Counted from the first letter of the stretch, positions 1,262 through 55,180 are shown. The stretch: 64,000 bases of DNA from Planctomycetota bacterium (GCA_965222115.1 CBDCTJ010000003.1:384001-448000), one strand, 5' to 3'. Notes: a model not told the origin generated them from the sequence alone. A program made the numbers and translations.

Positions 1262-1378
1262 GCAACCTCCTATGGATCTCTACGAGCACCGGCCTGCGAT
1301 TCTCGCGTGACTGAAAACTTGATTACCGCCCTACCGGCGCGTGATTTACAGCGCAGTGCGCCGTCGTGTTGCGATCGA

Positions 1379-3061: not shown

Positions 3062-3287
3062 GAGGCGTACATCCTCCAAACCCGGTGGCTGCAACGGCGA
3101 GCGAGCCCCGGATATAGCACATCGAAGGCCGAAATGACCCGGCTCACACCGCCGATGGCGAACAGAGCGCGCTGCTTGCGCGGAATCGGTCTCTAATCCG
3201 GAAAAATCAGGCGTGCGCCCGTGCGGCGCAGTCCACACCATGGCCGATAATGAACGTCGAGCCCACGCGCTTGGACGGGATACGCCT

Positions 3288-10500: not shown

Positions 10501-10965
10501 TGTCGAAGCCAATGCGTTGGCGGCTCGACGTGCCACGTACCAATGATCGTCACTCAGGAGCTCAATGAGACGCTCCACGGAGTCCGGCGTGTTCGAACGC
10601 AGGTGAGCAAGCGCGCCCGCTGCCTCGGCGCGCACCCAGGCAGAGTCGTCGTCGAGCGCCACTGCAAGACGATCGCGTACTTCGCGGCTTCGGAATGCGT
10701 CTTGGCCGAGGGCGGCGGCAGCGCAGGCGCGCGTTTCGGCGACGTCGCTTGCGAGATCGCCAAGGAGCTTGGCGGCATCCGCCGCGGAAACGTCCCGATT
10801 GGGCGTGGCGTTGGCGCCCATCAGGATTCCATCGCCGCCACGCGTGAGAAGGGCGATTCCAACGACGACGGCTAGCGCAAGCGCCGTCAGACCAAGAACG
10901 CGTGGTGGACTCATAGAACGGCTGCTGGCGTTTGCTCGCACGTCGGATTGTTGTGAGTGATGCAT
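7573..10965 (-). CDS. Large membrane-anchored HEAT/PBS-lyase repeat protein
   Basis: N-terminal hydrophobic segment, then many LxDxxxxVRxxAAxALG-type repeats over about 1100 aa; AGGAG SD before ATG 10965. Confidence 0.8.
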   Translation of the reverse strand: MHHSQQSDVRANASSRSMSPPRVLGLTALALAVVVGIALLTRGGDGILMGANATPNRDVSAADAAKLLGDLASDVAETRACAAAALGQDAFRSREVRDRLAVALDDDSAWVRAEAAGALAHLRSNTPDSVERLIELLSDDHWYVARRAANALASTPEQSLSGLRAAMDTATDKNRDGLATALRRMGSQAMPILSGVLTSDNESAVRVALRAMHDSQTDASSAFDAVTKIVERTASSDVRSDAVIAFGAMKQATARVLPKLDALIQQRETSYAAATAYKALGDAAKPSLPAMLRALRNERESNYTLHELIGSFGEDAVPGLRTLLRNRNQKTLEGVLRALRTMGRKGHHAIPDVIRLLDHRDPSFIMTVVNTLNELGPRSVAEILSVISPTSRIGTVRQAMRLLNFMGKKTVKGFALALERGSWMVRAAAAKKLVELGEDAIEAAPTLRRMLNSKDEYVRALSAAALVSMGRHVRDAIPQLVEGIRMRDGNVVRICVDAAARLRVSTPELVAALEDRMGRGSTKIGQSARTALISIGNPSQALVRQLIRDLSGKEGARAARTLARIGPVSAEVASALRRAIERGDASTAAASIRALSKMGPFDDATRRLITEKMADREPQVSGAAVDALAESMSADELLLFIGGNGPTHARVALAVRWARASKQPAPASLSTLVHSLFKSGKRKSVRQGLYVLDALGPRAVPCVLAAIASQEEALQDGGIFFFARAAPDLRDINIDRAWTSDELVAYRNEVSRDPLRNDARAMLLRRTKATEAPKRGMAALALAFFPRDATTIERLSSLVGDANGQVKAISMLALLPFNGAIDGVMPRVRTLTKERGLPGSIAKRIVALKDTSVQASDRKPKGKQPKQAVSVRDQIEQLAVAKKAGSFTANDVESLLDLLNHEGIRVGDAAASYLPDVLAAYPCLQPLISTVVVEGKPFKVGLALDGDLARVESWDTEDARRVVPLLENAQWGRRSAAIAIAAAAALSEARPVFLNLLKHEDAMVAENAAQALRRYRDLTQSDVEALIQALARPRLRRKVLDVLASLGSKAVSAVPEILSLLDAGRETDASLRALGTIGDDRLAVRRRILELYRRPEHRDAAIDAARKIASTSPAAQEVFSELLTAPSTRR

Positions 10966-11058
10966 GGTCTCTCCTGGGGGGCTACCCAAGAGAGCGGATT
11001 CGCGAAACGGTTGCTACGTAGCGGGGTGATTTTTGTGATCTGCGCTACGCTGCGGTCC

Positions 11059-11697
11059 ATGAATGGCGAAGGCACGGATCCTCACACGCGCTCAAGCAAC
11101 CAAGATTTGACACAAACACTGGCCTTGGTGAGAAGGGCGCAGGACGCCGACGCAATTGCTCGCGAGCAACTCTTCGTTCACATTCGACCCCGTCTGGAGG
11201 CGTGGATCGCGAGCCGCGTGGGGCCCCGCCTGCGAACGCGCCTCGATGTCGAGGATTTGTTCCAAGAGATCTGCATGAGCGCCCACACGGCCCTCGACAG
11301 CTTTTCGCCGGATGGCAATGAGGCCGCATTTTGGCGTTGGATAACGACCATTGCCCATAACCGCATCCGCGACGCGCACCGCTACCATGTGGGCGCCCAG
11401 AAACGCAGCGCAGAGGCCGAACAGCGGCTCGAACACCAGTTAACGAGTTCGTGGACGTCGCCGAGCTTGCGCGCCGTTCGTCGAGACCAACATGAACGTC
11501 TGTTGTTGGCCATTGCACGTCTCGATGAACCGCATCGCGACGTCTTGCGCGTCGTCGAGTTCGAACACCATAGCTACAAAGAGGCAGCGTCGATCTTGGG
11601 CATCTCGGCCTCCAATGTGAGTGCTCGTTTGACGCGCGCCCGCACAAAACTCGGCGAGTTGATACGCAAGTCGCCCGACGACTGGACGCGTGCATAG
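11059..11697 (+). CDS. ECF RNA polymerase sigma factor (kinase-associated type)
   Basis: Sigma2 DVEDLFQE...FWRWITTIAHNRIRD; sigma4 SYKEAASILGISASNVSARLTRAR; stop overlaps the next start. Confidence 0.9.
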   Translation: MNGEGTDPHTRSSNQDLTQTLALVRRAQDADAIAREQLFVHIRPRLEAWIASRVGPRLRTRLDVEDLFQEICMSAHTALDSFSPDGNEAAFWRWITTIAHNRIRDAHRYHVGAQKRSAEAEQRLEHQLTSSWTSPSLRAVRRDQHERLLLAIARLDEPHRDVLRVVEFEHHSYKEAASILGISASNVSARLTRARTKLGELIRKSPDDWTRA

Positions 11698-14240
11698 TGA
11701 CACTTGGCGATAGCGATCATGATGCCCCCGAGCGGATCCTTCATGAGTTCTTAGAGACTCACGGGCTCCGCGATGACGACGCGTGGCACGCGCTCTTGAC
11801 GTCGCATCCGCAACACGCCGATGCACTTAAGCAACTTGGCGATGCGCTGCGTGCCGCGGACGACGCGCTGGAGGGTTTGCGTGCTCCATTGAACACAGTG
11901 CGCGAGGATCCCGACGCGGCACTGCTCGATGCGTTCGCAGGCGATGTGCCGGACCACGCGGCCACATTCGAAGAGGTCGCGAGCATGACAAGGGAAGCGC
12001 ATCATGGGGTCGCATCCGGGCCCCATGCTTCGCACACATTGGAACGCTGCCCTCGATCCATGGAGGAGCGCGCGTTTCTCGAACAAACACGAACCATTGC
12101 ACGCCTGCAGCATCCGTCCATTGCGCCCGTCCACGATCTTGTGCGCGACGAGGACGGACGCCTTGCCCGTCTGAGATCCTTTCCGCCATCAACGTCTCTT
12201 CACGAGTTGCTGAAGGATTCGAAGAGGGAATTGCGCTTTGATCGACGGCGCCTCATCGAAATCCTGTCGAAATGCGCGCGTGTTCTCGCGTTTGCTCATG
12301 AACACGGAGTTGCACACGGTCATCTTGATACGGACAACATCGCCGCGGGCGCCGGTGGGGAACCCTACGTGTTGGGGTGGCAGAATGCCATCGCCCAAGG
12401 TGAACCCGATTATCCCGCTGCGGCGCGCGCAGATATGTCCGCAATTGGTACATTGATCCAAGCCGTAACTTCACGTTTCGGGACAAACGACGCACTGGAC
12501 GCCATTGCGGACGCGTGTGGCGACGGTACGACGTACGCGCGAGCCACGGGCATCGCGGATGACTTAGACGCGTATCGTGAACACCGTCCCCTCAAGGCCT
12601 CGCCCCCTACGGCATGGCGACGACTGGTTCTTACGGCACGACGACACCCGGCCATTGCTACAGCCGTAGGCGCCACGTTGCTTGCAGGTGCGGGTCTGCT
12701 GATGACTCATCTCATTGAGATGAGTCAGGAGATCAAGGCTGCGCAAATAGCTCAGCTGGCAGCACGGAATGAAACCGTGATCGCTGAAGAGAAATCTGAC
12801 TTGGCGCTTGCCCTTGCGCTTGAGCAAGAGGCGCCAACCCTATGGCCGCCGGATCCCGGTACGCTGCCAAAGTACAATGCATGGCTTGAAGACTGCGCAA
12901 GACTTGAGTCGCGTGTGCCCCTGCTACGTTCACGATTGAATCAAGCGCCCAAGGTGGCGACGCGGTCATTCGATACGAGCCAACCTCTACCCCGCACCCG
13001 TTCCATCCACCGCGCCGTACGCAGAATCTCAGTCTGCGAGAATGACATTCGCACGTTAACACTGACACTCAACGCGACGAAGGCGTCTACCGAAGACAAG
13101 CCGATTCGCAAGGCGATCGCGCACGAACTTGAGGAACGAAAGCAGAGGCGTGCAGAGTTGAAAAATGAGCTACGCGCCGCACAGATTCGCGCGCGCGTCG
13201 ATCGAGACGATCGATGGGCGCGTATTGCCTCCATCATCTACCGCATTGAACGTCTAACGCGTGGCGAGCGCTCCGCCAAACGGGTCATTGACGCCCGCCG
13301 CGACCTTGCTGAGAACGTTGCACGTCGCTATGAAAAACCAAGCGACGCATGGCGTCTTGCACAAGACCAGATTCGAGCCGACGCGCGATTCGGCATGTTG
13401 ATCGACGTCCAGCCCGACCTCGTTCCATTGGGCATGGATCGCGCGTCACGCCTCCAAGAATTCGCGTTCTTGCCATCGGGGTCGATTCCGCGGCGCGATG
13501 CAAATGGAGACCTACACTACAAAGACGATGCAGCAATCGTTTTCGTGCTGATTCCGGGCGGTACAACGTGGATTGGCGCACAGTCAGAGAACCCGAAGGG
13601 TAGGAATTACGATCCACAGGCAGTTCCTAACGAAGGGCCGCCTCATGAAGCGCCCATCGATCCCATCTTTATCGCCAAGCATGAGTGTACGGCCGCGCAA
13701 TGGAATCGGCTTCGCTCGCGCTGCCTCCCCATCGACGAAGAGCGCGAGATAGAGAAGACGATCGGTGAGGCTGCGCCGCGAGAGCCCCGTCGAAATCGCG
13801 AGCACACCGCAGTCAAAGAGATGTTGTCGCGCTACGCACTCCGAATGCCCTACGAGTGGGAGTGGGAGCATGCGGCCCGCGCGGGTGGAACGGGTCTCTG
13901 GCCCTGGCCCGGCGACGCCACGCACGCGCCGAGATACACGCAAGTCGGTAGCGGCGCCGTCTTGGCCGAAGTGGGACTGTATGCGCCAAATGGTTTCGGA
14001 CTCCACGATTTGGGAGGCAACGCTGCGGAGCTGATGGAAGGCTATGGGGGAGCATACGAATCGATCTTCTTCGTACGCCGATGGATATCGAACACACGCA
14101 CAGTTCGTGGTCGGTACCTCGGTCGGCCCATTGAGCACGCCCGCGTCACGCATCGCTGGGATGTGCCAATCACATTCTCTTCACCGTGGCTGGGGTTTCG
14201 ACCCGCGCGACCCGTGTATCGGCTGAAGAAGTACCCGTGA
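11697..14240 (+). CDS. Degenerate Ser/Thr kinase (pseudokinase) - TM - coiled region - FGE/SUMF1 (CLec-fold) domain protein
   Basis: Kinase remnants ARLQHPSIAPVHD and AFAHEHGVAHGHLDTDNI, but no Gly loop, VAxK, HRD or DFG. C-terminal FGE motifs VLIPGG, LRMPYEWEWEHAARAG, PNGFGLHDLGGNAAE, LGFRPAR. Confidence 0.8.
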   Translation: MTLGDSDHDAPERILHEFLETHGLRDDDAWHALLTSHPQHADALKQLGDALRAADDALEGLRAPLNTVREDPDAALLDAFAGDVPDHAATFEEVASMTREAHHGVASGPHASHTLERCPRSMEERAFLEQTRTIARLQHPSIAPVHDLVRDEDGRLARLRSFPPSTSLHELLKDSKRELRFDRRRLIEILSKCARVLAFAHEHGVAHGHLDTDNIAAGAGGEPYVLGWQNAIAQGEPDYPAAARADMSAIGTLIQAVTSRFGTNDALDAIADACGDGTTYARATGIADDLDAYREHRPLKASPPTAWRRLVLTARRHPAIATAVGATLLAGAGLLMTHLIEMSQEIKAAQIAQLAARNETVIAEEKSDLALALALEQEAPTLWPPDPGTLPKYNAWLEDCARLESRVPLLRSRLNQAPKVATRSFDTSQPLPRTRSIHRAVRRISVCENDIRTLTLTLNATKASTEDKPIRKAIAHELEERKQRRAELKNELRAAQIRARVDRDDRWARIASIIYRIERLTRGERSAKRVIDARRDLAENVARRYEKPSDAWRLAQDQIRADARFGMLIDVQPDLVPLGMDRASRLQEFAFLPSGSIPRRDANGDLHYKDDAAIVFVLIPGGTTWIGAQSENPKGRNYDPQAVPNEGPPHEAPIDPIFIAKHECTAAQWNRLRSRCLPIDEEREIEKTIGEAAPREPRRNREHTAVKEMLSRYALRMPYEWEWEHAARAGGTGLWPWPGDATHAPRYTQVGSGAVLAEVGLYAPNGFGLHDLGGNAAELMEGYGGAYESIFFVRRWISNTRTVRGRYLGRPIEHARVTHRWDVPITFSSPWLGFRPARPVYRLKKYP

Positions 14241-14251
14241 GGCGTCCGTCG

Positions 14252-16867
14252 ATGTCGCAGGAATCAGTACTCAGATATCGCTTCGTCGAACCACTCGGCC
14301 GTGGCGGCATGGGCGTTGTAGTGAAGTCGTGGGATCGCTACTTGGATCGAGCGGTTGCCGTGAAACTGCTGCGCGCTCGACCGGGAGCCACTCCCGTCGA
14401 TGACGAGTGCATTGCTCGATTTTCGCGTGAATCTAGTATCGGAGCGTCGTTGTCGCATGGCGGCATTGTGCCCATCTACGAGGTCGGAACCACAGAGAGC
14501 GGCACGCGGTTCTTTACGATGCCCGTGATCCAGGGTGACGAACTCAAAGCCCTCATTCGCCGCGCCCATGAGCCGCCTCGTACGCCACGTCAACGCAGAC
14601 GAGTGATTCAGCACATTGTGGAGGCGTGTGACATCGTTCACTACGCACACACGCAAGGAGTCATTCACCGCGATCTCAAGCCTTCCAACATCATGGTGGA
14701 TGAGGTCGGTCGCGTCTATGTCGTAGATTGGGGAGTAGCGAGGGGATTGGGAGAGCCGGAGGAGCAGGCAAGCCCCGTTGAACGCGCTTCGCACGAGCGA
14801 TCGACCGAAACGCTTGTTACCGAAGATGGATGCGCCCTTGGAACACCCTCCTACATGCCTCCCGAGCAAGCACTCGGCGAATCCGTGACGCCCCAAGCCG
14901 ACGTCTACGCGCTGGGCGCCGTGCTGTATCACGCCCTGACCAACCGAATGCCCTATCGAGATCCAACGCGACCAACGACGCAAGGCGAGATTCTGGGCAA
15001 ACTGATCAAAGGGCCGCCAACCGACATATGGGAACTTGCGCCGGACACGCCAAAGGCATTGGTTCAAATCGTCGAATTGGCTATGGCGCGTGAGCCGACC
15101 GGTCGCTACGGCAGTGCCGCGGCCATGGCCGGAGACTTGCGAGCGTACTTGGAAGGGCTTCCCGTTGCTGCGGCACGACCCTCGATTTGGCGCCGAACGA
15201 AGCTCATGGCTCGTCGGCATCGTACGGTCGCAGGCGCAGTCATGGGCGGGGCGATAGTACTCGGGCTTCTCTGGCTGGTGCTTGGCACTGTGCTTGACAA
15301 CGCGCAACGTCGGTCAGCCACTGCACAGGTTCGGCTGGCACGGGCAATCGACAGAGAGAAAGAATCGGCGATTCTGTCAAGCGCCAACGCACTCCGCGCG
15401 AGTTTAGACGAGTGTATCCCACTCTCGAAGGTGCACCTCACGGCATTGCGTGAACTCAAGGACAGGGCCAAAGCGGTCAACGAACGTAGAAGACCCTATG
15501 CGGAAGAACTCGAAACCCTCAAGGCAACGTCGCTCCCGCTCGATGCCGCGCAACGGAATTGGCACAATCGCGCGGACGTTGAAGACGCTCGCTTGGAGTC
15601 AATGTACGTGTCCTGGGTTCGGACGGAATATGACAAGATGCACGAAGAGGGAGTGATCGACCCCCGCATTGAGGAACTATTCTCAAAGACTCCTATTGAG
15701 CGATACGAGGAGGGCGTTGTCGCTCGGGCAGCCGACCTGAAAGCGAAACGCAGCGTATGGCGCTATGCTTTACCGCGTGACGGAGTGAGGCATCGCCAGC
15801 TTGAAGGGGCCCTCCGTCCCGACATAAGCAAAATCATGGCGGATATCCAACTGAGCATTGCTCGAATTAATGAACGAAAACGCGCAATGCCGGAGACCTC
15901 AACAAGCCGTTGGCGAACATGCCGGGCGAGCATTCGTAGCAACACTCGATATCGTGGTATCGAAATCCCCATACAAGAGAGTCTTTTCCCTTTAGGCGCC
16001 GATCCAAGCTCAGGATTGCATGAATTCGTGGATGTTTCGACAGGCAGTGTTCCGAAGCGGAACGAAGAGGGATCGCTGGTTCTTGAAGACGATACGGGGA
16101 TTGTGTTCGTCTTGGTCCCCGGCGCCGCGCGTACTGACGTTGGCGTATCGCGCCAAATCTGGGAAAGCAAGCTGGGCTCAGTCTCCCACGTAGGCCCGTT
16201 GCGTCCTGTCGCCATCGAGCCCTTCTTTCTTGCCAAGGGTGAGTGCACGATAGCTCAGTGGGAACGAATGGGTGGAGAGCTTGGCATGCGTTGGGAAGAG
16301 ATGCAGGAACCTCGCTGTGGGACCAATATCACAAAGCGATTCCCCATGTGCCATGTCTCATTCAATGGCATACAGCGCGCCTTGGAAACGTTTGGCATGC
16401 GTTTGCCCACGGCACACGAGTGGGAATATGCCGCGCGAGCGGGCATGCAGTCCCTCTACCCGGGTGGAGAATCGCATCATGCATTGAAGGGCGCCGCCAA
16501 TGTCGCGGACCAGTCCTTTGCAGAATGCCACAAGGAGGAGTCCAATCGAATCAGCGAGTCGCTCGCTAACTGGAATGACGGGTACGGCGCCGAGTCGCCC
16601 GGTGGGTCGTTTCTTCCAAATGCGTTCGGCCTACACGACATGATTGGGAACGTCGAGGAGTGGGCGTCTGCTGAATGCACATTGTTTACATGGCCAAGTG
16701 GGTCCACGGATTGGTCTACGCTTCCGAAATCGTGGGGCGTTGTCCGAGGCTCAAGTTGGTACTATCCGCCTAATCATGGGTATTTCGCAGCCCAGCGCAT
16801 CGAGCCCCCAAACACCTACCTCATGCAACTCGGCTTCCGCGCTGCGCGCAGCATTGACTGGAAGTAG
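14252..16867 (+). CDS. Ser/Thr protein kinase - TM - FGE/SUMF1 domain protein
   Basis: LGRGGMG, VAVK, HRDLKPSN, DWG, GTPSYMPPE, DVYALG; C-terminal RLPTAHEWEYAARAG, PNAFGLHDMIGNVEEW, LGFRAAR. Confidence 0.92.
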   Translation: MSQESVLRYRFVEPLGRGGMGVVVKSWDRYLDRAVAVKLLRARPGATPVDDECIARFSRESSIGASLSHGGIVPIYEVGTTESGTRFFTMPVIQGDELKALIRRAHEPPRTPRQRRRVIQHIVEACDIVHYAHTQGVIHRDLKPSNIMVDEVGRVYVVDWGVARGLGEPEEQASPVERASHERSTETLVTEDGCALGTPSYMPPEQALGESVTPQADVYALGAVLYHALTNRMPYRDPTRPTTQGEILGKLIKGPPTDIWELAPDTPKALVQIVELAMAREPTGRYGSAAAMAGDLRAYLEGLPVAAARPSIWRRTKLMARRHRTVAGAVMGGAIVLGLLWLVLGTVLDNAQRRSATAQVRLARAIDREKESAILSSANALRASLDECIPLSKVHLTALRELKDRAKAVNERRRPYAEELETLKATSLPLDAAQRNWHNRADVEDARLESMYVSWVRTEYDKMHEEGVIDPRIEELFSKTPIERYEEGVVARAADLKAKRSVWRYALPRDGVRHRQLEGALRPDISKIMADIQLSIARINERKRAMPETSTSRWRTCRASIRSNTRYRGIEIPIQESLFPLGADPSSGLHEFVDVSTGSVPKRNEEGSLVLEDDTGIVFVLVPGAARTDVGVSRQIWESKLGSVSHVGPLRPVAIEPFFLAKGECTIAQWERMGGELGMRWEEMQEPRCGTNITKRFPMCHVSFNGIQRALETFGMRLPTAHEWEYAARAGMQSLYPGGESHHALKGAANVADQSFAECHKEESNRISESLANWNDGYGAESPGGSFLPNAFGLHDMIGNVEEWASAECTLFTWPSGSTDWSTLPKSWGVVRGSSWYYPPNHGYFAAQRIEPPNTYLMQLGFRAARSIDWK

Positions 16868-16873
16868 CGATGG

Positions 16874-17416
16874 CTATGTGCCTTTCGTTTTCGCATCATC
16901 GGACTTTAGGATGTCCAACACGTCAGAGAGTGAGCGCTTGGAGTCAAAGAACTCGGGAATGAAGCGGCGCACTGCCGATGCCTGTCCCTCACTCATTGAT
17001 TCGCGAGCAATCTTCAGAACCAACTCGTTCGCCTTGTGGAGTGCCTTGTAGCGCCGCGATCGAATCTGCGCCAATCGAAGTTCGCCGTACATGCGCGTTT
17101 GGCCCATCACCATGCGATCCGTATTGCGCCGCATGAAGCCAAAGCCGCCAAGTCCCGGAATGATGTTCTCAATGCGATAGGGACTATGGACCGCCGCCAT
17201 GGCGCTCCTTGTTTCGTCGATAACGGCCCGCATGGCCCGTTCGGCACTGTCGGCTTCTGCGAAATGGGCTTTCACCCGTTCGTCTTCGGCCGCCTCGTCG
17301 ATCGCGGTCTGAGCAAGTGCGACAGCTTCGGCACGCGTAGAAGGCGCATCGCCGCAGCCCTGTGCCACGAACGTGACACCGGTGAGCAACACCAGGGAAA
17401 TGAATCGTTGAACCAT
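16874..17416 (-). CDS. Hypothetical lipoprotein
   Basis: Signal peptide with lipobox VAQG-C; AGCGGAGG SD; helical mature region. Confidence 0.65.
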   Translation of the reverse strand: MVQRFISLVLLTGVTFVAQGCGDAPSTRAEAVALAQTAIDEAAEDERVKAHFAEADSAERAMRAVIDETRSAMAAVHSPYRIENIIPGLGGFGFMRRNTDRMVMGQTRMYGELRLAQIRSRRYKALHKANELVLKIARESMSEGQASAVRRFIPEFFDSKRSLSDVLDILKSDDAKTKGT

Positions 17417-17472
17417 GATCTGTCCTCCGCTTCCTTGAGCGGATTCGGCCGTCCGTTGCTACAAGAATTCTC

Positions 17473-17514
17473 GGGCATCTTCGTCCCGGGTTTGGGCATC
17501 TTCGCCCCGGGTTA
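17473..17514. repeat. 21-bp tandem duplication
   Basis: gggcatcttcgtcccgggttt followed by gggcatcttcgccccgggtta; the second copy includes the stop codon of the upstream lipoprotein gene. Confidence 0.8.
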
Positions 17515-17952
17515 GTTGGGGCGCAGCCCTCCAGGGGAGGCCAACCGAGCCAGAATTGCGTTGATCTCTCGTCGGCGCGCTGCGTTATTCGTAATCGCCG
17601 GTCGAAATGCATCCACCATCGCGGTCACGCCCGTGCGTTCATTGAGTTTCATCAGTTCTGCGGCGGGCGGGTCGAGTTGATCGAGCAAATGCAGCAGATC
17701 ATTCAAGACGGGCCTGAGCGTGGCAGGATCGACGACGCCGCGTCGCGCCAGCTCGTAGTAGTCGTCCTGCCTCTTGTAAAACGACTTCCCCAGCTTGGCG
17801 TAGACCTCGGACACACGCTCAATCTCGGCTTTCAATGCAAGTGCTTCTGCTTCCGTCTTGGGCGGACCGACTGGCACGTCGGACGACTTGGAGCAGGACG
17901 CAATCACCAAGAGTGCAAGTAGAGTCGCGATTGGCAAGCCGTTGCGTATCAC
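17512..17952 (-). CDS. Hypothetical lipoprotein
   Basis: GTG start overlapping the CHAT gene stop (GTGA); MIRNGLPIATLLALLVIAS-C lipobox; helical mature part. Confidence 0.7.
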   Translation of the reverse strand: MIRNGLPIATLLALLVIASCSKSSDVPVGPPKTEAEALALKAEIERVSEVYAKLGKSFYKRQDDYYELARRGVVDPATLRPVLNDLLHLLDQLDPPAAELMKLNERTGVTAMVDAFRPAITNNAARRREINAILARLASPGGLRPN

Positions 17953-20738
17953 TTTGTTTCCCCCGTATTCGTTTCGCCGGGGTGCGGAACACCCCAAACC
18001 TGCCAACCGGCCCAATGATCCGGATCGCGAAATGCGGCACTTGATGCAAGCTCCTGCTTCGCACGTCGCAGCGCCTGCATAAGCGGTTCACCCGCCCCTT
18101 GCTTCGGATTCCATCGGCGATAAAACGCCGTCATGAACGCTTGCGTCGCTTGGTCGTCTACCGGCCAAAGGCTCGCAATGACAGCGCGTGCACCGGCCGA
18201 CAAGAAGCCGCGAGCGAGGGACAGGCTTCCTTCGGAGCGTGACAGTTGCCCGATTCCACTCTGACACGCCGAGAGCACGACGAGGTCGGTCCGAATGGGA
18301 ATCCGTTCAATCTCCTCCATCGTCAATCGCCCGTCGTCATGCCCGCTCGGCGAGAGTCGCAGCGCCGAACGCTGCGGTACGTAGTCATCGAGGTCGCCAT
18401 GGGCGGCGATGTGAATCGCACGCCATCCTGGTTTCTCACTCGCCGCACGTCGGTAGGCCTCCTCCGTTGCACTCGCTCGCACATGGACCTTGGTTCCGAT
18501 GGCGCGGGCTTCGTCGCCCGACGCACGCAGTCTCGCCAAAGACGTGTCGGCGCTGTAGTCCGGGTCGGCGAGGGCAACAACGCGCCTGCCGCCGACGCGC
18601 TTTCGCGCGAGCAGTTCTTGGAGTATGGCGAACGACGGAACGATCGAGACCGTTCGACGACCCAAGTACTCCGCAATCGGCATATGCGCGGTCACCCCTG
18701 TCGTAGATACATAGATATGGGTCGTGACGGGGTCAAGGGCAAGAGCGGCATCGAAACGCGTGCGGTAGGTGTCTCTCAATACGTTCCATGCATTCGGATG
18801 CTCTTGCTCGGCAAACGCCCTCTGCGCCGCATTGAGTTTCTCCACGGCGCCCAGGGTCACCAGACGCGCGTGTTTCCCGCTTACAACGAGTGCCAGCACG
18901 GTGTCGTCAAATACGTGGATGGACATCCACGCGCGATGGGCGGGGAGCAATCGACGGGCCTCGCGGAGGCGTTTCACACGGGGCTTGAATGTCCGCCCGC
19001 CGCGCAACGCGCTGCGCCTCACCGCCACGGCCTCGTGTAACGCCTGTCTCGCGGCTTCGACCTCCGGCATCGCATTCGACTCAAACGCTTGAAGCAGACG
19101 CCGACGCGCACGTCGAATCGCCGCGTCATGCTTGTAACGAGCATGTGCATCCCCGTGTGATTCATGTGCAGGGACGCGGTGATGGCGTGCCAGGGAATTG
19201 AGCAGCACACGTGCACGGCCTTCTTCGGCAAAACGAAAGAACGCGTCGGCATTCTTTGATGCGAACGCAGCGCGCATGCCTAAGTCCAATACGCTCTGAT
19301 CGCTGTCCCGTACGCGAATGACGTCCAGCGGCGCGAGATCGTTTGAACGATCATCGAGATACGGCACGGCTTCGTGCACAGATGCGATGGCGCCGGCATG
19401 GTCGCCTTGACTCAACTGCGCCGTTGCACGGCCACGTAGCGCAGCCACAATCATGCGCGGATTGTGCAGCTCGGTTGCAAGGGCGTGCGCACGCGTTAGA
19501 GACTGAATCGATGCGCGATGATCGTCCTTCGCGTGCTGTGCACCCGCCAGGGTGAGCAGGGCGACGAGTTCGTCCATCCGCAGCCGGAGCTTCCGTGATC
19601 GTGCCAAGTTCTCCGTTGCCAGTTGAGCCGCCAAATCAAACCGGTCCGATTTGAGCATGAGATCGGCCACATTCCCACGGACGACCATCTCCTGTTCGAC
19701 GTCGTTGATGGCCTGGGCGCGCGCTGCAATGGACGTTAGGCGTGAAACGAGCTCGTCACTCTTGTTGCCGTCCGCAATGTCAATATTCGCGAGATCCAGA
19801 TCGATCGCGAGAAGCTCCGAGGGCGCGCTTGCCCCGACGAGCTCCCGTTTCGCCACCATAACGTAGCTTCGCGCCTGCGACAGGTCTCGTAGTCGCCACG
19901 CAAGAACGCCAAGTTCCCGCACCGATTGTGCCGCGTGGAGCACGAATCCATGCTGGCGTTGAATCTCACGGGCACGCAGGAGACGCCGTTTTGCCCGACC
20001 ATAGTCACCCGACGTGATGTCGAGACGACCAAGTGCCGCCAGCGTATTGGCATACCCACGGGGGTCGCCGTGCTCACTGCGCATGGACAGGGATTCACCA
20101 AAGTGTTTGCGCGCCCTGGCAATATCTCCTTGCTGTGCATGCAACATGCCGAGATTTTGGTGCGCCTTCATGACGCCGGGGCGCATAAACGCTTCTCCAT
20201 AACTCTTGGCAGCGGCAGGCGCCCTTTCGAGTACGCGCTTCATCGAAGCAATCGCCTTTCGATCTTCGCCTAAGAGGTCGTAGGCCAGGCCTCGATTGAG
20301 TTCGAGCATGAGCAGCGCACGCCCGTGATCTACATTTTGAAACAAGCGCTCCGCCTCGGCATAAAGCGAAAATGTTTGCTCACGCAGCCGTAGGCGAGAC
20401 GCGACGTTTGCCGCGGACATGAGCGCGATCGCACGCGCCTGATCGTCCTTACGCTCCGCATGAATCTCAGCTTCACGTTGAAAATGGTTGAGCGAACACT
20501 CAAATCGCCCCAGATTTACACACGATCGTGCCTTCGCAGCGTGCATCGCCGCCGACTCATCTAACTCGCCGCGTTTGTAAAGCGCTTCGGCAATATCTAC
20601 ATCCTCGACCACCTGCTTTGCAGGATTCCGTGCCTCGTCTTCGGAAGCGCCACCTTGTGCGCGACTCTGCCACCATCCGAACACCAGAAGCGAAACGATT
20701 CCTGCAGTAAGTGCTAGTGCGCTGCGCTTGTTCATCAT
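17949..20738 (-). CDS. Exported TPR-repeat CHAT-domain (caspase-like) protease
   Basis: N-terminal signal/TM, many TPR-like helices (NLGMLH..GD..A), AEEGRARVLL, CHAT catalytic motifs IHIAAHG and LVVLSACQSG, VIASLWPVDD, HWAGW. Confidence 0.9.
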   Translation of the reverse strand: MMNKRSALALTAGIVSLLVFGWWQSRAQGGASEDEARNPAKQVVEDVDIAEALYKRGELDESAAMHAAKARSCVNLGRFECSLNHFQREAEIHAERKDDQARAIALMSAANVASRLRLREQTFSLYAEAERLFQNVDHGRALLMLELNRGLAYDLLGEDRKAIASMKRVLERAPAAAKSYGEAFMRPGVMKAHQNLGMLHAQQGDIARARKHFGESLSMRSEHGDPRGYANTLAALGRLDITSGDYGRAKRRLLRAREIQRQHGFVLHAAQSVRELGVLAWRLRDLSQARSYVMVAKRELVGASAPSELLAIDLDLANIDIADGNKSDELVSRLTSIAARAQAINDVEQEMVVRGNVADLMLKSDRFDLAAQLATENLARSRKLRLRMDELVALLTLAGAQHAKDDHRASIQSLTRAHALATELHNPRMIVAALRGRATAQLSQGDHAGAIASVHEAVPYLDDRSNDLAPLDVIRVRDSDQSVLDLGMRAAFASKNADAFFRFAEEGRARVLLNSLARHHRVPAHESHGDAHARYKHDAAIRRARRRLLQAFESNAMPEVEAARQALHEAVAVRRSALRGGRTFKPRVKRLREARRLLPAHRAWMSIHVFDDTVLALVVSGKHARLVTLGAVEKLNAAQRAFAEQEHPNAWNVLRDTYRTRFDAALALDPVTTHIYVSTTGVTAHMPIAEYLGRRTVSIVPSFAILQELLARKRVGGRRVVALADPDYSADTSLARLRASGDEARAIGTKVHVRASATEEAYRRAASEKPGWRAIHIAAHGDLDDYVPQRSALRLSPSGHDDGRLTMEEIERIPIRTDLVVLSACQSGIGQLSRSEGSLSLARGFLSAGARAVIASLWPVDDQATQAFMTAFYRRWNPKQGAGEPLMQALRRAKQELASSAAFRDPDHWAGWQVWGVPHPGETNTGETK

Positions 20739-20760
20739 GGACTCCGTTCGTGTTGGATTT

Positions 20761-22773
20761 TCAATTGGCGTGTTTCGTGGTCGTCGGCAGCGGCAAACCA
20801 AGCGCGCGCCGTGCCGCTTCGAGAACGGCCCGGCCCAACCGTCCGACCCTCGGCACGTGCCGCAGCGTTTCGAGCGCCGCGGTGTAGCGCCCTTGCGTGT
20901 ACAGAACGAATGCACGCCTTTCCTCGGGAAGTGCTTGTGTGGCGCGATCGACGATGGCGAGCGAAGCCGACGTCTGCTTCGGGTCGGCATCGGTCATGAC
21001 CGTAAAGGTGGCTCGACCCGCTTCTTCGCCCTCCATGTCCAACACATTCCACGTATAAGTTTGGCCTGGACGAAGCCGACCACGAATGTCTTCGGGAATC
21101 ACGATCCGCTGTGTGGCCGCGTCCGTCGCCTTGATGATCCGCTGAAAACTACTCCCATATACATCCATTGCAACGGTCCCATAGGTACCGGGTGGCATGG
21201 CAACCGTTAGCGCCACCACATCGTTCTTTGTCACGTTGCCGCGGGGAAGCCATGCGACGGGAGATGCGCGACTGCGTACGACGCGATGATGCGCTCTTGC
21301 CGACGCACGTACAAGTGCAACCATTTCGCGAACGAGCTCCGGTGCGTCCTCGCGCAACTGCTCCGCCGGCGCCAATTGGACTTCATCGCCACTGCGAATG
21401 CGGCACCGTTGGCTCCACGAATGAAAGTACGGTGATTCCCAACGAACTTCGTGTGAGCCGGGCGAGAGCTTGTGTCCGCGTAGCGGCGCCCCGCCACACG
21501 CCACACCATCGACATAGACTTCGCCCCCACCCAACGTCTCGGGAACCACGTGCAGCGTTCCACGGCGAAACGTGGTCCACCAAACGGTTCCTAGGCCCAA
21601 CATCGCGACCACGACGGCGGACGCAACCCAATGACGTTTCGCGAAACGCGCGGCTTTGGCGAAACGTCTGGACGGCATTCGGATTTCACGTCCCTGTGCC
21701 ACTTTCCGCAGGTCGTCAGCCAGCGCGCGCGCGTCGGCATAGCGATCCCGGGGATCTACTTCCAAAGCGCGGTGAATGACCTGAGCAATTGCGGGGGCAA
21801 TCGTCGGCGTAACGGACGCTAGTGGAGCGATCGATCCCCGCGTGACACACGTTCGCACGTCTGCTAAAGATTCGGCGGCGCCATGAATACGCTGGCCGCT
21901 CAGCGTCTCGTACATCACCGCGCCAAGGCCGTAGATGTCGGAGCGCCCATCCAGCCGTTTCGGATCACCACGCCATTGCTCGGGACTCATGTAGGAGGGA
22001 CTTCCGAGCATGTCGCCGTGCTGCGTGAGTGACGTGCCGAGTTCGGTCTTCGCAAGATCAAAGTCGGTGAGGACCAATCGACCCTTGGCGTCCAAGATCA
22101 AGTTGGAGGGCTTGACATCGCGGTGCACGATTCCCACGTGGTGATAGGCCGCGAGGGCTTCCGCCACGCCGACAAACGCCATGGCGATGCGCCGCGAAAA
22201 TCGATGGGCGCCGCGTCCCACGCCGGGAATACCGAGTCGATCCAGTACATGGTCGCGTTCGACACCGGAGGAGATTTCCTCTGCGTGAAGCTGACCAATG
22301 GCGTCGCTCCAGGTGGGGCCGCGCAAGAGCCCCATCACGATGTAGGGTCGGTCTGACGTGTTGGCAATGCCGTGATCAAAAATACGCGCCGCATGATCAT
22401 GTTCGACTTGAGCTGCGGCGGCCGCCCCCGCTTCAAACCGCTGCCGCGCCTCTGTGTTGCTCAGCCGTTGATGCAAGACCTTGAGCGCCACTTCACGAGA
22501 CAGGCCCACTTGCCACGCTCGAAACACATCGCCATACGATCCAGAACCCAAGTAGGCGAGGGTGCGATAGCCCTCCACGACAACGCCCACACCACCCTCG
22601 TCGAGTGACTTGTCTTGCACAACCGGGCGCTCGCTGAGGGTCTCATCCAACACGCGCGTAAACTGGGCGAATGCTCCTCCCGCTTGATCGCGATAGTCAT
22701 TCACGTCGGGCTCCTCCCCATGCAATGCGCGCAGAAAATAATCGGCAACAAGCATGGAAACGGTCGGGTCCAT
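20761..22773 (-). CDS. Ser/Thr kinase - TM - PEGA - DUF928-like C-terminal domain
   Basis: LGSGSYG, VALK, HRDVKPSN, DFD (DFG variant), GSPSYMSPE; TM; PEGA-like EVYVDGVACGGAP; C-terminal LRPGQTYTW and RAFVLYTQGRYTAAL. Confidence 0.88.
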   Translation of the reverse strand: MDPTVSMLVADYFLRALHGEEPDVNDYRDQAGGAFAQFTRVLDETLSERPVVQDKSLDEGGVGVVVEGYRTLAYLGSGSYGDVFRAWQVGLSREVALKVLHQRLSNTEARQRFEAGAAAAAQVEHDHAARIFDHGIANTSDRPYIVMGLLRGPTWSDAIGQLHAEEISSGVERDHVLDRLGIPGVGRGAHRFSRRIAMAFVGVAEALAAYHHVGIVHRDVKPSNLILDAKGRLVLTDFDLAKTELGTSLTQHGDMLGSPSYMSPEQWRGDPKRLDGRSDIYGLGAVMYETLSGQRIHGAAESLADVRTCVTRGSIAPLASVTPTIAPAIAQVIHRALEVDPRDRYADARALADDLRKVAQGREIRMPSRRFAKAARFAKRHWVASAVVVAMLGLGTVWWTTFRRGTLHVVPETLGGGEVYVDGVACGGAPLRGHKLSPGSHEVRWESPYFHSWSQRCRIRSGDEVQLAPAEQLREDAPELVREMVALVRASARAHHRVVRSRASPVAWLPRGNVTKNDVVALTVAMPPGTYGTVAMDVYGSSFQRIIKATDAATQRIVIPEDIRGRLRPGQTYTWNVLDMEGEEAGRATFTVMTDADPKQTSASLAIVDRATQALPEERRAFVLYTQGRYTAALETLRHVPRVGRLGRAVLEAARRALGLPLPTTTKHAN

Positions 22774-22835
22774 CTCGTCTTCTTGTGTATGGATGTGATG
22801 TCGCTCGTGGGGCATCATGGGGACCGAACCCGAGC

Positions 22836-31004: not shown

Positions 31005-31622
31005 CTAGTCGTCCCCCGACCCCCACACCGTCTTGGCGGTGGGATCGTCAAGGAGGCGCTTTAGCGTGAGGAGGGCGCGGGTAAGTCGCGCGCCTGCAGC
31101 CTTCTCGGTGATGCTTAGAACCTTGGCCGCATCAGCGTAGGTCATGCCGTCGAATCGAATGAGGCGAATGATCTCGCGATGCGACGGCGACAGCGTTGCA
31201 ATCATCGCCAGTAGCCGTTCCCGTTCTTCGTTGCGCTGCACCTCACCACTCGCTGAACACCACGACACGCGCAACGTCTCCTTGAGTTCTTGCTCGCGCC
31301 GCGCATCGCGCCTTTCACGTGTGAAGTGTTTGCCTGCATCGCGAATTCGGTTCTCCGCAATCTGCATGAGCCACGCGGCAAACGCGCCGGGCGTCTCGTA
31401 CGTGAAGCGTTCGAGGCCCGCGGACGCCCCCGAGAGGGCTTCCTGGACGATGTCTTCAACGTCGAGTCGCGTTCGAAGAAACTCACCAAATCGAAAGGCT
31501 ATCCAACGCTCAAGGCCAGGCCGCACCGCCGAAAACGCCTCATCGAGGGCGGCGCGGTCGCCGTTGCGCGCCCGGGCGAGCACCTCGGCAAGATTGGGGG
31601 GTTCGGAAATTAGACGAGACAC
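31005..31622 (-). CDS. ECF RNA polymerase sigma factor (paralog of 11059-11697)
   Basis: ARNGDRAALD, LRTRLDVEDIVQE, FAAWLMQIAENRIRD, MTYADAAKVLSITEKAAGARLTRA. Start approximate. Confidence 0.88.
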   Translation of the reverse strand: MSRLISEPPNLAEVLARARNGDRAALDEAFSAVRPGLERWIAFRFGEFLRTRLDVEDIVQEALSGASAGLERFTYETPGAFAAWLMQIAENRIRDAGKHFTRERRDARREQELKETLRVSWCSASGEVQRNEERERLLAMIATLSPSHREIIRLIRFDGMTYADAAKVLSITEKAAGARLTRALLTLKRLLDDPTAKTVWGSGDD

Positions 31623-31773
31623 CGGATGCGCAACTCTCCCCTGAAGATCGGGTCTGAATGGCGCTGAGAGTCTACCGCTGACCCCAATCCAGATCGAATC
31701 CGGGAAAAATCGGACTTGACCGTAGGGATGGCGCCGGCACGTCGCTCTTTCATCTAGGACCAAGGAATGCGCC

Positions 31774-47550: not shown

Positions 47551-47963
47551 ACGTGCCCGTCATACAAGAATCGTGCGCCCCAGGGCACACAAGCGCGAGA
47601 GCGTAGACGGCAAGTGGGGCTCGGACAAGACCCGCCTGGTGTCGCCGCCTCGATTTTCATGACAAATTCGTGACGCGCTGAGAGCCGAGATGCCCGGAAT
47701 CCTGCCGCGAAGCACCGAAACAGAGGCCTTTCGATAACCGATCTGAAAGGGGGGGTACGGACCCTTCGTCCAAGCGACAGCGTCGTGCGGAGGAATTCCG
47801 CGCCTCCGGCGGGTCGAGCGGCCTCATGGGAGGGGTCGCTTGCATTTCCGCCTGCGCTACGAACGATGGCCGTCGCCTCGGCGATGGCTGCCCATCCGCT
47901 GCCGGCCCCATCCTTGCGATGACCCGGTAAGACCATTTGCCCAATCCCAAGGGAGAAGATCGC

Positions 47964-50570: not shown

Positions 50571-50748
50571 CAAGTGGGTTCCTGCGCCACGCGCAGGCGA
50601 CATCGCAAGGGACATTGACCAAGAGTTGAACGTCCCCTCGGGTCGATTGCTCGGGTAAGATCTCGGCATTCGTCGTGAGTAGATGAGCGTCTCGGTCGTC
50701 TCATACGACATATCCATCCGGCAAATTGTCGGGAGCCAGGGCGCGCGT

Positions 50749-50793
50749 GCGCCCACATATTTGGCGCCCACGTATCGGGCGCCCACATATTGG
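50749..50793. repeat. 15-bp imperfect tandem repeat x3 (GCGCCCACRTATYKG)
   Basis: Copies at 50749, 50764 and 50779, immediately before the probable gspE start. Confidence 0.85.
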
Positions 50794-50803
50794 GGTCGAC
50801 CGC

Positions 50804-52528: not shown

Positions 52529-52576
52529 CAGCACCACCCCGAGCGAATCAAACGGCCAAGGAGCACACCCTCATTC

Positions 52577-53806: not shown

Positions 53807-53995
53807 CGCCCTCCCTGGGATCAGGGAGCGACCGGAACCGGGTTGCCCACCAGCGAGAGACGACGGCTGGGTGGCATGTTATTTTTTGGCTTGAGTTAAA
53901 TTGGCAAGGTCCGAGCGGCTGCGACGTCCAATCGAGGCACGCCGCTCCGTCGGACTCGACGTAGCTGGTGCAACGCAGTTGGAGCAAGAAACACC

Positions 53996-54463: not shown

Positions 54464-54495
54464 TAGAGACGCCCGTCAACCCACGAAGCCCCATC

Positions 54496-55179: not shown

Positions 55180-55180
55180 C

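Follow-up and report, generated by a model that had tools for sequence, protein, structure and literature searches.

CHAT proteases, which are caspase-like, are abundant in bacteria and substrates are known for few of them; DdvA is, to our knowledge, the only periplasmic CHAT protease that has been studied. A 64,000-nucleotide stretch of DNA from a Planctomycetota bacterium (hereafter the window) encodes a predicted exported TPR-CHAT protease directly after a transmembrane Ser/Thr kinase, which raises the question of whether the two proteins form a signalling pair in the cell envelope and, if so, through which part of the kinase. The first-pass annotation of this DNA had proposed an Arg-rich linker as the place where the protease binds or cuts the kinase ectodomain, and had likened that ectodomain to DUF928. 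The window was compared here with a set of 3403 ORFs from 80 CHAT loci.

Gene organization

Kinase, TPR-CHAT protease and two lipoproteins are encoded by four co-oriented, close-set genes on the minus strand (Table 1), the arrangement that the first-pass annotation had described. The intergenic region between kinase and protease genes is 22 nt, the protease and lipoprotein 1 genes overlap (spacing of -4 nt) and a gap of 95 nt separates the two lipoprotein genes. Missing from the earlier list was a gene for a multi-TM membrane protein, co-oriented and 17 nt upstream of the kinase, which is possibly the first gene of the unit; its product had no Pfam family, no PADLOC match and no relative in the 80 CHAT loci. 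The kinase end given previously, position 22773, corresponds to an internal methionine (Met16, 670 aa form) that is also the start in the database copy P0003. For the CHAT gene, the ATG at 20738 has GGAG ahead of it; a longer ORF extending up to 20990 was rejected for its atypical codon-position GC (GC2 of 0.71) and its overlap with the kinase 3' end. Scans for promoters and terminators gave nothing above chance. The sigma factor encoded at 10957 in the window showed no special closeness to the sigma factors of the module-bearing CHAT loci described below.

Table 1. Features of the gene unit, with positions counted from the first letter of the window.
Feature	Length or residues	Coordinates	Strand	Basis
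Multi-TM membrane protein, start uncertain	337 aa	22836..23849	-	Hydrophobic segments
Hanks-type Ser/Thr kinase	685 aa	20761..22818	-	ORF, Pfam domains
Kinase catalytic domain	84-365	21724..22569	-	Pfam Pkinase, E 2.9e-29
Single TM helix of kinase	397-417	21568..21630	-	Judged by eye
PEGA beta-sandwich of kinase	431-482	21373..21528	-	Pfam PEGA, E 6.6e-8
Arg-rich linker HRVVRSRAS, candidate recognition/cleavage site	511-519	21262..21288	-	Directly ahead of FN3-like domain
FN3-like beta-sandwich of kinase	520-609	20992..21261	-	hhalign, HMM, AlphaFold, Foldseek FN3/Ig matches
C-terminal helical part of kinase, three predicted helices, TPR-like as in MtxA; lower confidence		20764..20991	-	AlphaFold, Foldseek
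TPR-CHAT cysteine protease, exported or membrane-anchored	929 aa	17949..20738	-	Pfam CHAT and TPR families
N-terminal hydrophobic segment of CHAT protein, ALALTAGIVSLLVFGWW		20670..20720	-	Signal peptide or signal anchor by eye
CHAT protease domain	681-915	17994..18698	-	Pfam
Catalytic His in IHIAAHG		18396-18416	-	Sequence motif, alignment A1
Catalytic Cys in VVLSACQSG		18255-18281	-	Sequence motif, alignment A1
Lipoprotein 1, lipobox VIASC	146 aa	17512..17952	-	GTG start overlapping CHAT stop (GTGA)
Lipoprotein 2, lipobox VAQGC	180 aa	16874..17416	-	GGAGG upstream

Domain content of the kinase and the protease

The kinase consists of a cytoplasmic kinase domain, one TM helix, a periplasmic PEGA domain, a linker, an FN3-like domain and a helical tail. 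It belongs to the Hanks-type Ser/Thr kinases by its Pkinase match and by the catalytic motifs GSGSYG, VALK, HRDVKPSN and SPE, with DFD instead of DFG. The TM helix, PEGA domain and Arg-rich linker reported previously were all located in the sequence, as were two further motifs, LRPGQTYTW (within LRPGQTYTWNV, residues 582-592, inside the FN3-like sandwich) and RAFVLYTQGRYTAALETL (residues 635-652). No relatives of the PEGA domain were found within the CHAT loci.

Membership of the protease in the CHAT peptidases (PF12770, clan CD) is given by its Pfam match (E 7.4e-46; 157 bits, cut-off 24), found together with TPR families, and by a His-Cys dyad (AHG, SAC) that is intact, as first noted: in the CHAT alignment A1, C824 is invariant and H779 nearly so. 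Only the residues MMNKRS stand ahead of the hydrophobic segment ALALTAGIVSLLVFGWW, in agreement with the exported topology (signal or TM) described earlier and again judged by eye. The identity of the CHAT protein to its nearest relative is 29%. Its nearest relatives come from Planctomycetota MAGs, and it groups with four Planctomycetota CHATs (SH-aLRT 99). In a profile search of the PDB with the CHAT alignment, TPR matches swamped the result.

Sequence comparison places the kinase C-terminus in an unnamed FN3-like family

As judged from sequence and profile comparison, the last 171 residues of the kinase (hereafter the module) are a member of an unnamed FN3-like ectodomain family, for which none of the 120 database members listed carries a Pfam domain or name. 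With the kinase C-terminus as query, phmmer retrieved proteins from two loci among the 3403 ORFs (L039, E 1.2e-5; L013, E 7.3e-4), and jackhmmer converged at seven loci. The family HMM and alignment were then made without the kinase. Against this family, hhalign in local mode gave the kinase module 93.7% (E 1.9e-7) and its reversed sequence 0.1%. The HMM matched the kinase alone up to E 10 among the 720 window ORFs (E 6.8e-6), and in a pool of 4125 sequences it ranked the kinase 12th, after the 11 locus members (E 3.9e-5, the next sequence being at 0.034); two generic Ig-repeat decoys in that pool gave no score. The match is short and modest, covering ~50-63 residues at 21.5 bits. In alignment A2 of the family, P11, Y74 and W76 are invariant and S86 and F91 nearly so, and the kinase has the Pro before strand 1, the late-strand Y-x-W and the S and F near the end, the early-strand F-x-W being missing. 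A whole-ectodomain alignment (A3) was dropped for A4 since the family's first strands fell on the PEGA domain.

Neither Pfam nor NCBIfam had any match on the kinase C-terminus. The PDB was also searched by sequence, the queries being the kinase ectodomain, the ectodomain profile and the proteins from L013 and L008, and every match was a chance, FN3 or TPR one. Foldseek searches with the model of the module returned FN3/Ig matches. Against 1.84 billion representatives at E ≤ 1e-3, the module retrieved itself and three generic repeat proteins; these three, one of them (P0006) animal-looking, were considered as relatives and rejected as cases of generic beta-sandwich similarity. The combination of kinase and module is a single instance.

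A simpler account would make the kinase and the protease chance neighbours that act independently, the C-terminal domain being a generic FN3/Ig-like sensor. The generic repeat proteins that were all the database-wide search gave besides the kinase itself fit this account, as do the weak FN3 matches of the module profile in the PDB (best E 0.07) and the presence of four kinases in the 64-kb window, so that a kinase beside any given gene is not rare. It is at odds with the family HMM, which reached the kinase at E 3.9e-5 and no other Ig/FN3 ORF of the loci or the window at better than 0.034, and its standing is taken up again below with the gene neighbourhoods.

Comparison with DUF928 and MtxA

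The likeness to DUF928 claimed in the first-pass annotation probably holds at the level of fold, through a common match to PDB entry 4Z29, and was lost at the level of sequence and profile. DUF928 (PF06051) gave no match on the whole kinase at E ≤ 0.1 and none at E ≤ 10 on C-terminal pieces of 191 and 239 aa; a genuine DUF928 member (L020:6700-7713) matched PF06051 at E 3.3e-57. Compared by hhalign with an alignment of 40 DUF928 sequences, the kinase module scored 4.7% (E 0.0085) and the FN3-like family 4.1%, with reversed controls at 0.1%.

For the AlphaFold model of the genuine DUF928 domain (pLDDT 88.9), the top match in the PDB was MtxA (4Z29; E 6.4e-5). That of the kinase module (overall pLDDT 76.3; 77-93 in the sandwich and 55-73 in the helices, module residues 99-159) matched 4Z29_A at rank 10 in Foldseek (E 6.5e-4, probability 0.99, 176 columns, rmsd 11.1). 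Each of the two models is a beta-sandwich followed by helices and each matches 4Z29 over its full length, with TM-scores of 0.33-0.48; on these models the resemblance in layout is probably real at the level of the predicted fold. The two also have an L-x-x-G-x-x-Y-x-W loop motif at an equivalent place in the hhalign alignment, but DUF928 is a stand-alone secreted protein whereas the kinase module is part of a membrane kinase. The neighbourhood previously described for DUF928 was recovered in the cyanobacterial locus L020, where DUF928 lies between CHAT-CHASE2 and TPR-CHAT genes in clusters of sigma, DUF1822, CHAT-CHASE2, DUF928 and TPR-CHAT genes. Literature searches on DUF928 found nothing beyond a WD40 survey, and those on CHAT found no paper joining this domain with CHASE2, or with CHASE2 and ECF.

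MtxA of magnetotactic bacteria has an Ig/FN3-like sandwich followed by TPR-like helices (PMC4439547), a layout that the kinase module, as modelled, probably shares, although TM-scores between the two are only 0.33-0.34. Unlike the module, MtxA is secreted as a free protein and has one more domain at its N-terminus (PMC4439547). The MtxA families of Pfam (PF22433, MtxA_IG-like; PF22121, MtxA_C) had no match on the kinase C-terminus, and none of the PDB sequence searches with the ectodomain, the profile, L013 or L008 retrieved 4Z29. The Atlas feature score to the nearest clusters was 0.95, and MtxA_IG-like/MtxA_C occurred in 15-20% of the members of these clusters.

Members of the module family lie beside CHAT genes

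The FN3-like family was present in 11 of the 80 CHAT loci, spread over at least five other phyla, and nine of the 11 family genes overlap the CHAT gene or sit no more than 50 bp away from it, the corresponding gap in the window being 22 nt. Anti-sigma factors encoded immediately 3' of an ECF sigma gene account for nine of the 11 and secreted MtxA-like proteins for two; the MtxA-like gene of L013 stands before a CHASE2 cyclase gene, as mtxA does (PMC4439547). The order seen in the window, with the module gene immediately followed by a co-oriented CHAT gene, recurs at two loci (L008 and L069). An N-terminal hydrophobic segment was found in eight of the 11 full-length CHAT ORFs of module-bearing loci, which would place protease and module in one compartment.

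The kinase itself does not follow this pattern. Kinases occurred in only six of the 80 CHAT loci, with seven kinase ORFs in all, every one of them devoid of the module. Neither the module nor an adjacent kinase accompanies the four closest CHAT relatives. The conserved kinase-CHAT linkage expected by the first-pass annotation was thus not borne out, whereas the tie that it drew between the C-terminal ectodomain of the kinase and the CHAT gene holds: the survey supports conservation of module-CHAT linkage rather than of kinase-CHAT linkage.

These counts bear in two directions on the chance-neighbour account. The scarcity of kinases in CHAT loci, none of them module-bearing, and the lack of such a partner in the closest CHAT relatives favour it; the position of the family directly beside CHAT genes elsewhere (9/11) tells against it, as does the arithmetic of the window, in which, with ~55 genes, the single family member would adjoin the single CHAT gene by chance in about 4% of cases by our estimate. 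We consider chance neighbourhood somewhat unlikely. The kinase and the adjacent protease are probably an undescribed envelope signalling pair, because the module family elsewhere sits on sigma regulators beside exported CHAT proteases.

The anti-sigma proteins of the family and the window kinase have in common the ectodomain, an Arg-containing linker before it and a CHAT gene alongside, and they differ in most other respects. The nine anti-sigma proteins of the loci are 214-264 aa long as against 685 aa for the kinase, and their cytoplasmic part is an HxxxCxxC domain recognized by eye (Pfam zf-HC2 matched in only one of seven, at E 0.034) rather than a kinase domain. Their genes follow an ECF sigma gene, whereas the upstream neighbour of the kinase is a membrane protein gene, and most of them have neither the helical tail nor PEGA. 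A second anti-sigma ectodomain type found beside CHAT genes had no match in the window.

ECF sigma genes accompany CHAT in 21 of the 80 loci, an association already noted for group ECF54 (PMC8999054). Seven of the nine adjacent anti-sigma/CHAT pairs are convergent and hence not co-transcribed. The sigma factor could control the CHAT gene rather than be controlled by its product. Under such a scheme the sigma factor in the related loci, or the kinase pathway in the window, would drive CHAT expression, and the protease would attack proteins of the envelope or of foreign origin, as in defence or in remodelling of the envelope. Regulators and targets are in general inseparable from ECF neighbourhood context alone (PMC7826278), DdvA controls a defence island (PMC11506125), and PADLOC gave a weak BovA match in the window (E 7.5e-12). 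No defence-system model of PADLOC fits the whole unit, however; its other matches were to generic kinase domains (PD-T4-6, mad6), with nothing for the lipoproteins or the multi-TM protein. An output role would also leave both the recurrence of one small ectodomain on CHAT-adjacent transducers and its conserved Arg unexplained, and we regard it as distinctly unlikely.

The Arg-rich linker and a proposed mechanism

In 103 of 104 family members an Arg lies 11-12 residues ahead of the invariant Pro, and in the kinase R512, R515 and R517 lie 8-13 residues before the conserved Pro525. In the second CHAT-adjacent anti-sigma type all six seeds likewise have an Arg in one alignment column. Cleavage at the RSR linker, as the first-pass annotation envisaged, gains indirect support from this near-invariant Arg of the family.

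We therefore retain as our main reading, tentatively and with somewhat less than even confidence, that the kinase ectodomain is a binding partner or a substrate of the CHAT protease, with the Arg-rich linker as a possible site, and that the two proteins form a signalling pair. The sequences show the domain content, the topology as judged by eye, the family to which the module belongs and the repeated position of that family beside CHAT genes; physical contact, cleavage, its site and the effect on the kinase are what we infer. In outline, the exported or anchored periplasmic TPR-CHAT would engage the MtxA-like module of the kinase; upon an envelope signal it would cut the HRVVRSRAS linker just before the module; the module would then be shed and kinase output altered. 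The two lipoproteins would be co-expressed accessories.

The same association of module and CHAT would be seen equally if the protease bound the module without cutting it. The module would then serve for docking or inhibition, perhaps like a securin, or as a co-receptor. The kinase would report on the state of the protease (bound, free or ligand-occupied), and the actual substrates would lie among other proteins of the envelope, with the lipoproteins as possible candidates; lipoprotein 1 is probably coupled to the CHAT gene by the GTGA overlap. TPR arrays and Ig-like domains are typical protein binders, and in MtxA a hydrophobic face across both domains has been pointed to as a likely interface (PMC4439547). 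Yet a near-invariant Arg (103/104) in an otherwise variable linker is better explained as a cleavage or recognition site, and the intact dyad makes a mere scaffold unlikely; we take binding without cleavage to be unlikely.

The proposed linker cut has a possible parallel in DdvA, an anti-sigma factor whose periplasmic TPR-CHAT is turned towards the juxtamembrane linker of the same protein, with a proposed role as site-1 protease (PMC11506125); self-cleavage is a proposal there, and no cleavage event has been observed so far (PMC11506125). DdvA and the window CHAT both have a single membrane anchor and, on its periplasmic side, a TPR-CHAT with a His-Cys dyad, and the task proposed for each is a site-1-like cut in the juxtamembrane linker of a transmembrane transducer. 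Unlike DdvA, the window CHAT stands as a protein of its own, has only ~6 residues in the cytoplasm and lacks a zinc-binding anti-sigma domain; its presumed target is another protein, and a Ser/Thr kinase takes the place of the ECF sigma factor as output. Single-sequence PDB searches with the window CHAT did not retrieve DdvA. Craspase (Csx29 with Csx30) and HetF with PatU3 each pair a CHAT protease with one specific regulatory substrate (PMC10028731, PMC9457339), but Craspase, unlike the window CHAT, is a cytoplasmic RNA-guided complex (PMC10028731); against the type III-E Csx29 model (NF041237) the window CHAT scored 29.4 bits, the cut-off being 300, and no cas genes were found among the window ORFs scanned. 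In the accessible portions of the literature on CHAT domains with anti-sigma factors or in the periplasm, we found no description of an exported CHAT that is a protein of its own and has a kinase or an FN3-like anti-sigma factor as partner.

The module emerges as a candidate partner for exported TPR-CHATs, namely a small FN3-like ectodomain, preceded by a linker in which one Arg is near-invariant, that is borne by anti-sigma factors in several phyla and by a kinase in the window. If this link between module and protease holds, Ser/Thr kinases would join sigma-factor regulators as membrane proteins controlled by regulated proteolysis, the recurrent CHAT-ECF sigma association (21/80 loci) would be explained, and MtxA and DUF928 would fall into one structural and contextual class. 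A wider scheme, which we put forward as doubtful, would have exported TPR-CHATs act as signal-controlled site-1 proteases of a widespread periplasmic signalling system; they would read MtxA/FN3-like (and DUF928-like) modules and cut after a conserved juxtamembrane Arg. Three or more kinds of transmembrane transducer would have taken up this pair, among them ECF anti-sigma factors, CHASE2 cyclases whose partners are MtxA or DUF928, and the Hanks-type Ser/Thr kinase of the window. The scheme would give MtxA and DUF928 a first functional context.

The two lipoproteins

Neither lipoprotein had a Pfam or NCBIfam family or a relative among the 3403 ORFs of the 80 CHAT loci. The Atlas likewise gave no relative of lipoprotein 2 (best score 0.82). 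Codon-position GC did not tell the lipoprotein ORFs apart from antisense ORFs. The overlap of the lipoprotein 1 start with the CHAT stop suggests translational coupling, and on this arrangement lipoprotein 1 is probably coupled to the protease. Lipoprotein 2 shows a weak similarity to lipoprotein 1 (E 0.008).

The CHAT unit and its genomic surroundings

The four-gene unit described in the first-pass annotation was borne out in its open reading frames (ORFs), domains, spacing and intact His–Cys dyad, all four ORFs having the same orientation (see table). In order, the genes are spaced by 22 nt (kinase–CHAT), by a GTGA start/stop overlap (CHAT–lipoprotein 1), which is the only feature tying lipoprotein 1 to the protease, and by 95 nt. 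Residues 397–417 of the kinase form a single hydrophobic helix. A longer CHAT ORF to 20990 shows atypical codon-position GC and overlaps the 3′ end of the kinase gene. The CHAT dyad (His in IHIAAHG and Cys in VVLSAC) is invariant, or nearly so, across 12 aligned relatives. The two lipoproteins had no family match in Pfam, NCBIfam or PADLOC and no relative among the ORFs of 80 CHAT loci retained from a genome scan (L handles); their mutual similarity is weak (E 0.008), and the top Atlas score of lipoprotein 2 (0.82) was at chance level.

Features of the window and of selected CHAT loci (L handles), with their positions
Feature	Position	Strand	Content
Four-gene unit	window 16874–22818	minus	kinase, CHAT protein, lipoproteins 1 and 2
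Kinase		minus	685 aa; Pfam Pkinase (E 2.9e-29, residues 84–365); PEGA (E 6.6e-8, residues 431–482)
CHAT protein	ATG at 20738	minus	929 aa with that start; Pfam CHAT (E 7.4e-46, residues 681–915) and several TPR families
Lipoprotein 1 (third gene)		minus	small; lipobox-like N-terminus VIASC
Lipoprotein 2 (fourth gene)		minus	small; lipobox-like N-terminus VAQGC
Multi-TM protein	17 nt upstream of kinase	minus	fifth co-oriented gene; without family
ECF sigma/FGE-sulfatase operon	window 10957–16867	plus	ECF sigma gene (246 aa), then two large proteins, each with an FGE-sulfatase domain at its C-terminus: the first, a possible pseudokinase, with only a weak kinase match (E 3.1e-4), the second with a full Pkinase domain; convergent with lipoprotein 2 (gap 6 bp)
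ECF sigma ORF and Ser/Thr kinase gene	window 31005–33918	minus; plus	long sigma ORF (351 aa, minus) divergent from kinase gene (714 aa, plus), 5′ ends overlapping
ECF sigma and anti-sigma genes	window 61670–63975	plus	sigma closest of the three in the window to CHAT-locus sigma factors (E 2.5e-16 to L039), then anti-sigma gene with zf-HC2 and HEAT repeats
Type II secretion/type IV pilus-like genes	window 197–3241 and 47937–56564		secretin, two T2SSE ATPases and a PilT-like one, T2SSF, pseudopilins
PPIase or SurA-like chaperone gene	L001:9774–10907		directly behind CHAT gene
PPIase or SurA-like chaperone gene	L003:1061–3007		directly behind CHAT gene
DUF928 locus (Alkalinema MAG)	L020:1627–10581	one strand	sigma-70 region 4 protein, DUF1822, CHAT–CHASE2 fusion, DUF928, TPR-CHAT; TPS-domain gene further on
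Kinase between two CHAT genes (Gemmatimonadota MAG)	L025:5958–16712		906-aa kinase, multi-TM C-terminal part, without FN3-like module
Caspase and TPR-CHAT genes (cyanobacterial)	L029:6404–8677 (beside TPR-CHAT gene)		Peptidase_C14 protein with DUF4384
Caspase and TPR-CHAT genes (cyanobacterial)	L068:5547–7763		Peptidase_C14 protein with DUF4384; trypsin-like protease gene between it and TPR-CHAT

Family membership of the kinase module

The periplasmic module formed by the last 171 residues of the kinase retrieved nothing but itself and three repeat proteins from 1.84 billion representatives. Among the 3403 ORFs of the 80 CHAT loci, the kinase C-terminus gave two matches (L039, E 1.2e-5; L013, E 7.3e-4), and jackhmmer converged on seven loci. 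The proteins matched were of two types. The first, encoded directly behind an ECF sigma gene, comprises proteins 214–264 aa long that combine an HxxxCxxC motif, a single TM helix and an approximately 100-aa ectodomain. The second comprises two secreted proteins, that of L008 displaying C-terminal TPRs and a sub-threshold DUF7354 match. The gene for the other, in L013, precedes a CHASE2 cyclase gene, a position also reported for mtxA of magnetotactic bacteria (PMC4439547). A profile search placed at least 185 database members in this FN3-like family, and all 120 among the matches listed were unnamed and without a Pfam domain.

Compared by hhalign with a family alignment built without it (61 sequences: 52 database and 9 locus members), the kinase reached a probability of 93.7% (E 1.9e-7, 63 columns), against 0.1% for the reversed kinase. 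Its C-terminus was the sole hmmsearch match up to E 10 among the 720 six-frame window ORFs of at least 50 aa (E 6.8e-6). In a pool of 4125 sequences the kinase ranked right behind 11 locus members (E 3.9e-5; next match 0.034), two generic Ig-repeat decoys obtaining no score, and the model picked up two locus members withheld from training (2.5e-11 and 1e-10). The kinase match spans a short stretch of about 50–63 residues (21.5 bits), and the early F-x-W of the family is absent from the kinase. On these sequence comparisons we accept the module as a divergent member of the FN3-like family.

Fold of the module and its relation to DUF928

The AlphaFold model of the 171-aa module (12-row alignment) had a mean pLDDT of 76.3, with a beta-sandwich at 77–93 followed by three helices at 55–73. 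Foldseek matched the module to FN3 and Ig-like domains in the PDB (best E 2.0e-4); MtxA (4Z29_A) stood at rank 10 (E 6.5e-4, probability 0.99) with 176 columns aligned, each match ranked above it covering at most 110. Atlas features of the module led to clusters with MtxA_IG-like and MtxA_C in 15–20% of members.

A DUF928-like layout had been noted for this region in the first-pass annotation. Pfam gave no DUF928 match on the whole kinase, nor at E ≤ 10 on its C-terminal 191-aa or 239-aa pieces. With the genuine DUF928 protein of the cyanobacterial locus L020 (E 3.3e-57) and at least 120 relatives as reference, local hhalign of the module against 40 DUF928 sequences yielded a probability of only 4.7% (E 0.0085), compared with 4.1% for the FN3-like family and 0.1% for reversed controls. 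Similarity to DUF928 in sequence is therefore unsupported; the weak alignment coincides with a topologically equivalent L-x-x-G-x-x-Y-x-W loop. What survives of that layout lies at the level of the fold. The DUF928 model (39-row alignment, pLDDT 88.9) has eight strands followed by four helices, and its two best PDB matches were again to MtxA, i.e. 4Z29_A (E 6.4e-5; TM 0.39 and 0.48) and 4Z29_B (E 7.2e-5). With MtxA as common reference, the predicted module and DUF928 thus appear alike in layout, tentatively so because TM-scores are below 0.5 and the helices are weakly predicted.

Linkage of the module to CHAT genes

The CHAT protein likewise has no near relative, its best non-self match being 29% identical. 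Scanning one genome per species produced 604 pattern matches (601 confirmed relatives), with the window's own genome missing from the matches and Planctomycetota MAGs providing the top four loci. Among the 80 loci retained, ECF sigma genes occurred in 21, the FN3-like family in 11, kinases in six, CHASE2 in two and DUF928 in one; these are sample values from the 80 top-ranked loci out of at least 601, many ending at contig ends. An ECF sigma gene lies directly ahead of nine of the 11 family genes, and nine of the 11 overlap a CHAT gene or lie within 50 bp of it, seven being convergent with CHAT and two (L008 and L069) sharing its strand and lying upstream, the arrangement seen in the window. 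An N-terminal hydrophobic segment was present in eight of the 11 full-length CHAT ORFs of these loci. None of the seven kinase ORFs from the six kinase-holding loci scored with the family model; as read from sequence, their ectodomains are either multi-TM or rich in TPRs, the latter resembling those of the window FGE-sulfatase kinases.

A quick tree built from 94 CHAT domains (four of 98 removed for short coverage) grouped the window protein with four Planctomycetota CHATs (SH-aLRT 99), whose loci contain neither the module nor an adjacent kinase. In two of the four closest loci CHAT is immediately followed by a gene for a PPIase or SurA-like chaperone, which fits a periplasmic location of the protease. 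It follows from this survey that linkage of the module to CHAT is conserved and that linkage of kinase and CHAT is not; in the window, the former occurs in a CHAT lineage otherwise without the module. That kinase and CHAT are adjacent by chance is somewhat unlikely, and that the CHAT gene is an output rather than a regulator is decidedly so, yet both readings have to be reckoned with because most anti-sigma/CHAT pairs are convergent and kinase density is high (four kinase genes, alongside three ECF sigma genes, in 64 kb).

The juxtamembrane linker and a possible split protease–target pair

DdvA is the sole known example of a periplasmic TPR-CHAT with a part in transmembrane signalling; its authors describe it as the only characterised anti-sigma factor with such a domain (PMC11506125). 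In DdvA the domain is oriented towards the protein's own juxtamembrane linker, and its role as a site-1 protease acting before RseP is so far a proposal (PMC11506125). One review passage notes CHAT genes in the vicinity of ECF54 sigma genes (PMC8999054), the ECF reclassification paper does not use the word CHAT in its main text (PMC7826278), and our literature search found no report in which an exported, free-standing CHAT is paired with a kinase or an FN3-like anti-sigma factor. The wider interest probably lies in the comparative module–CHAT pattern more than in the window locus itself.

With DdvA as the closest studied case, we propose a split version in which protease and target are separate proteins: the exported TPR-CHAT would engage the kinase's MtxA-like module and cut the Arg-rich linker (HRVVRSRAS), thereby changing kinase output. 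Domain content, membership in the family and the genomic association are observed here, whereas contact between the two proteins, cleavage, its site and its consequence are inferred. Binding of the module by CHAT without cleavage appears unlikely. In the FN3-like family, profile column 12 or 13 is occupied by Arg in 103 of 104 full-length members (101 distinct linker strings), i.e. 11–12 residues ahead of an invariant Pro on the periplasmic side. R512, R515 and R517 of the kinase lie 13, 10 and 8 residues ahead of the matching Pro525. Since hmmalign left the kinase linker out of register with that of the family, the putative equivalence of these residues to the family Arg is based on spacing and on a MAFFT alignment (A2).

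TPR-CHAT genes in eight loci (L005, L031, L047, L053, L058, L070, L075 and L079) adjoin a gene for another unnamed type of ECF anti-sigma factor, whose different, beta-rich ectodomain terminates in a G-x-Y-x-L-x-V-like strand; in all six seeds of this type an Arg precedes the ectodomain at one shared alignment column.
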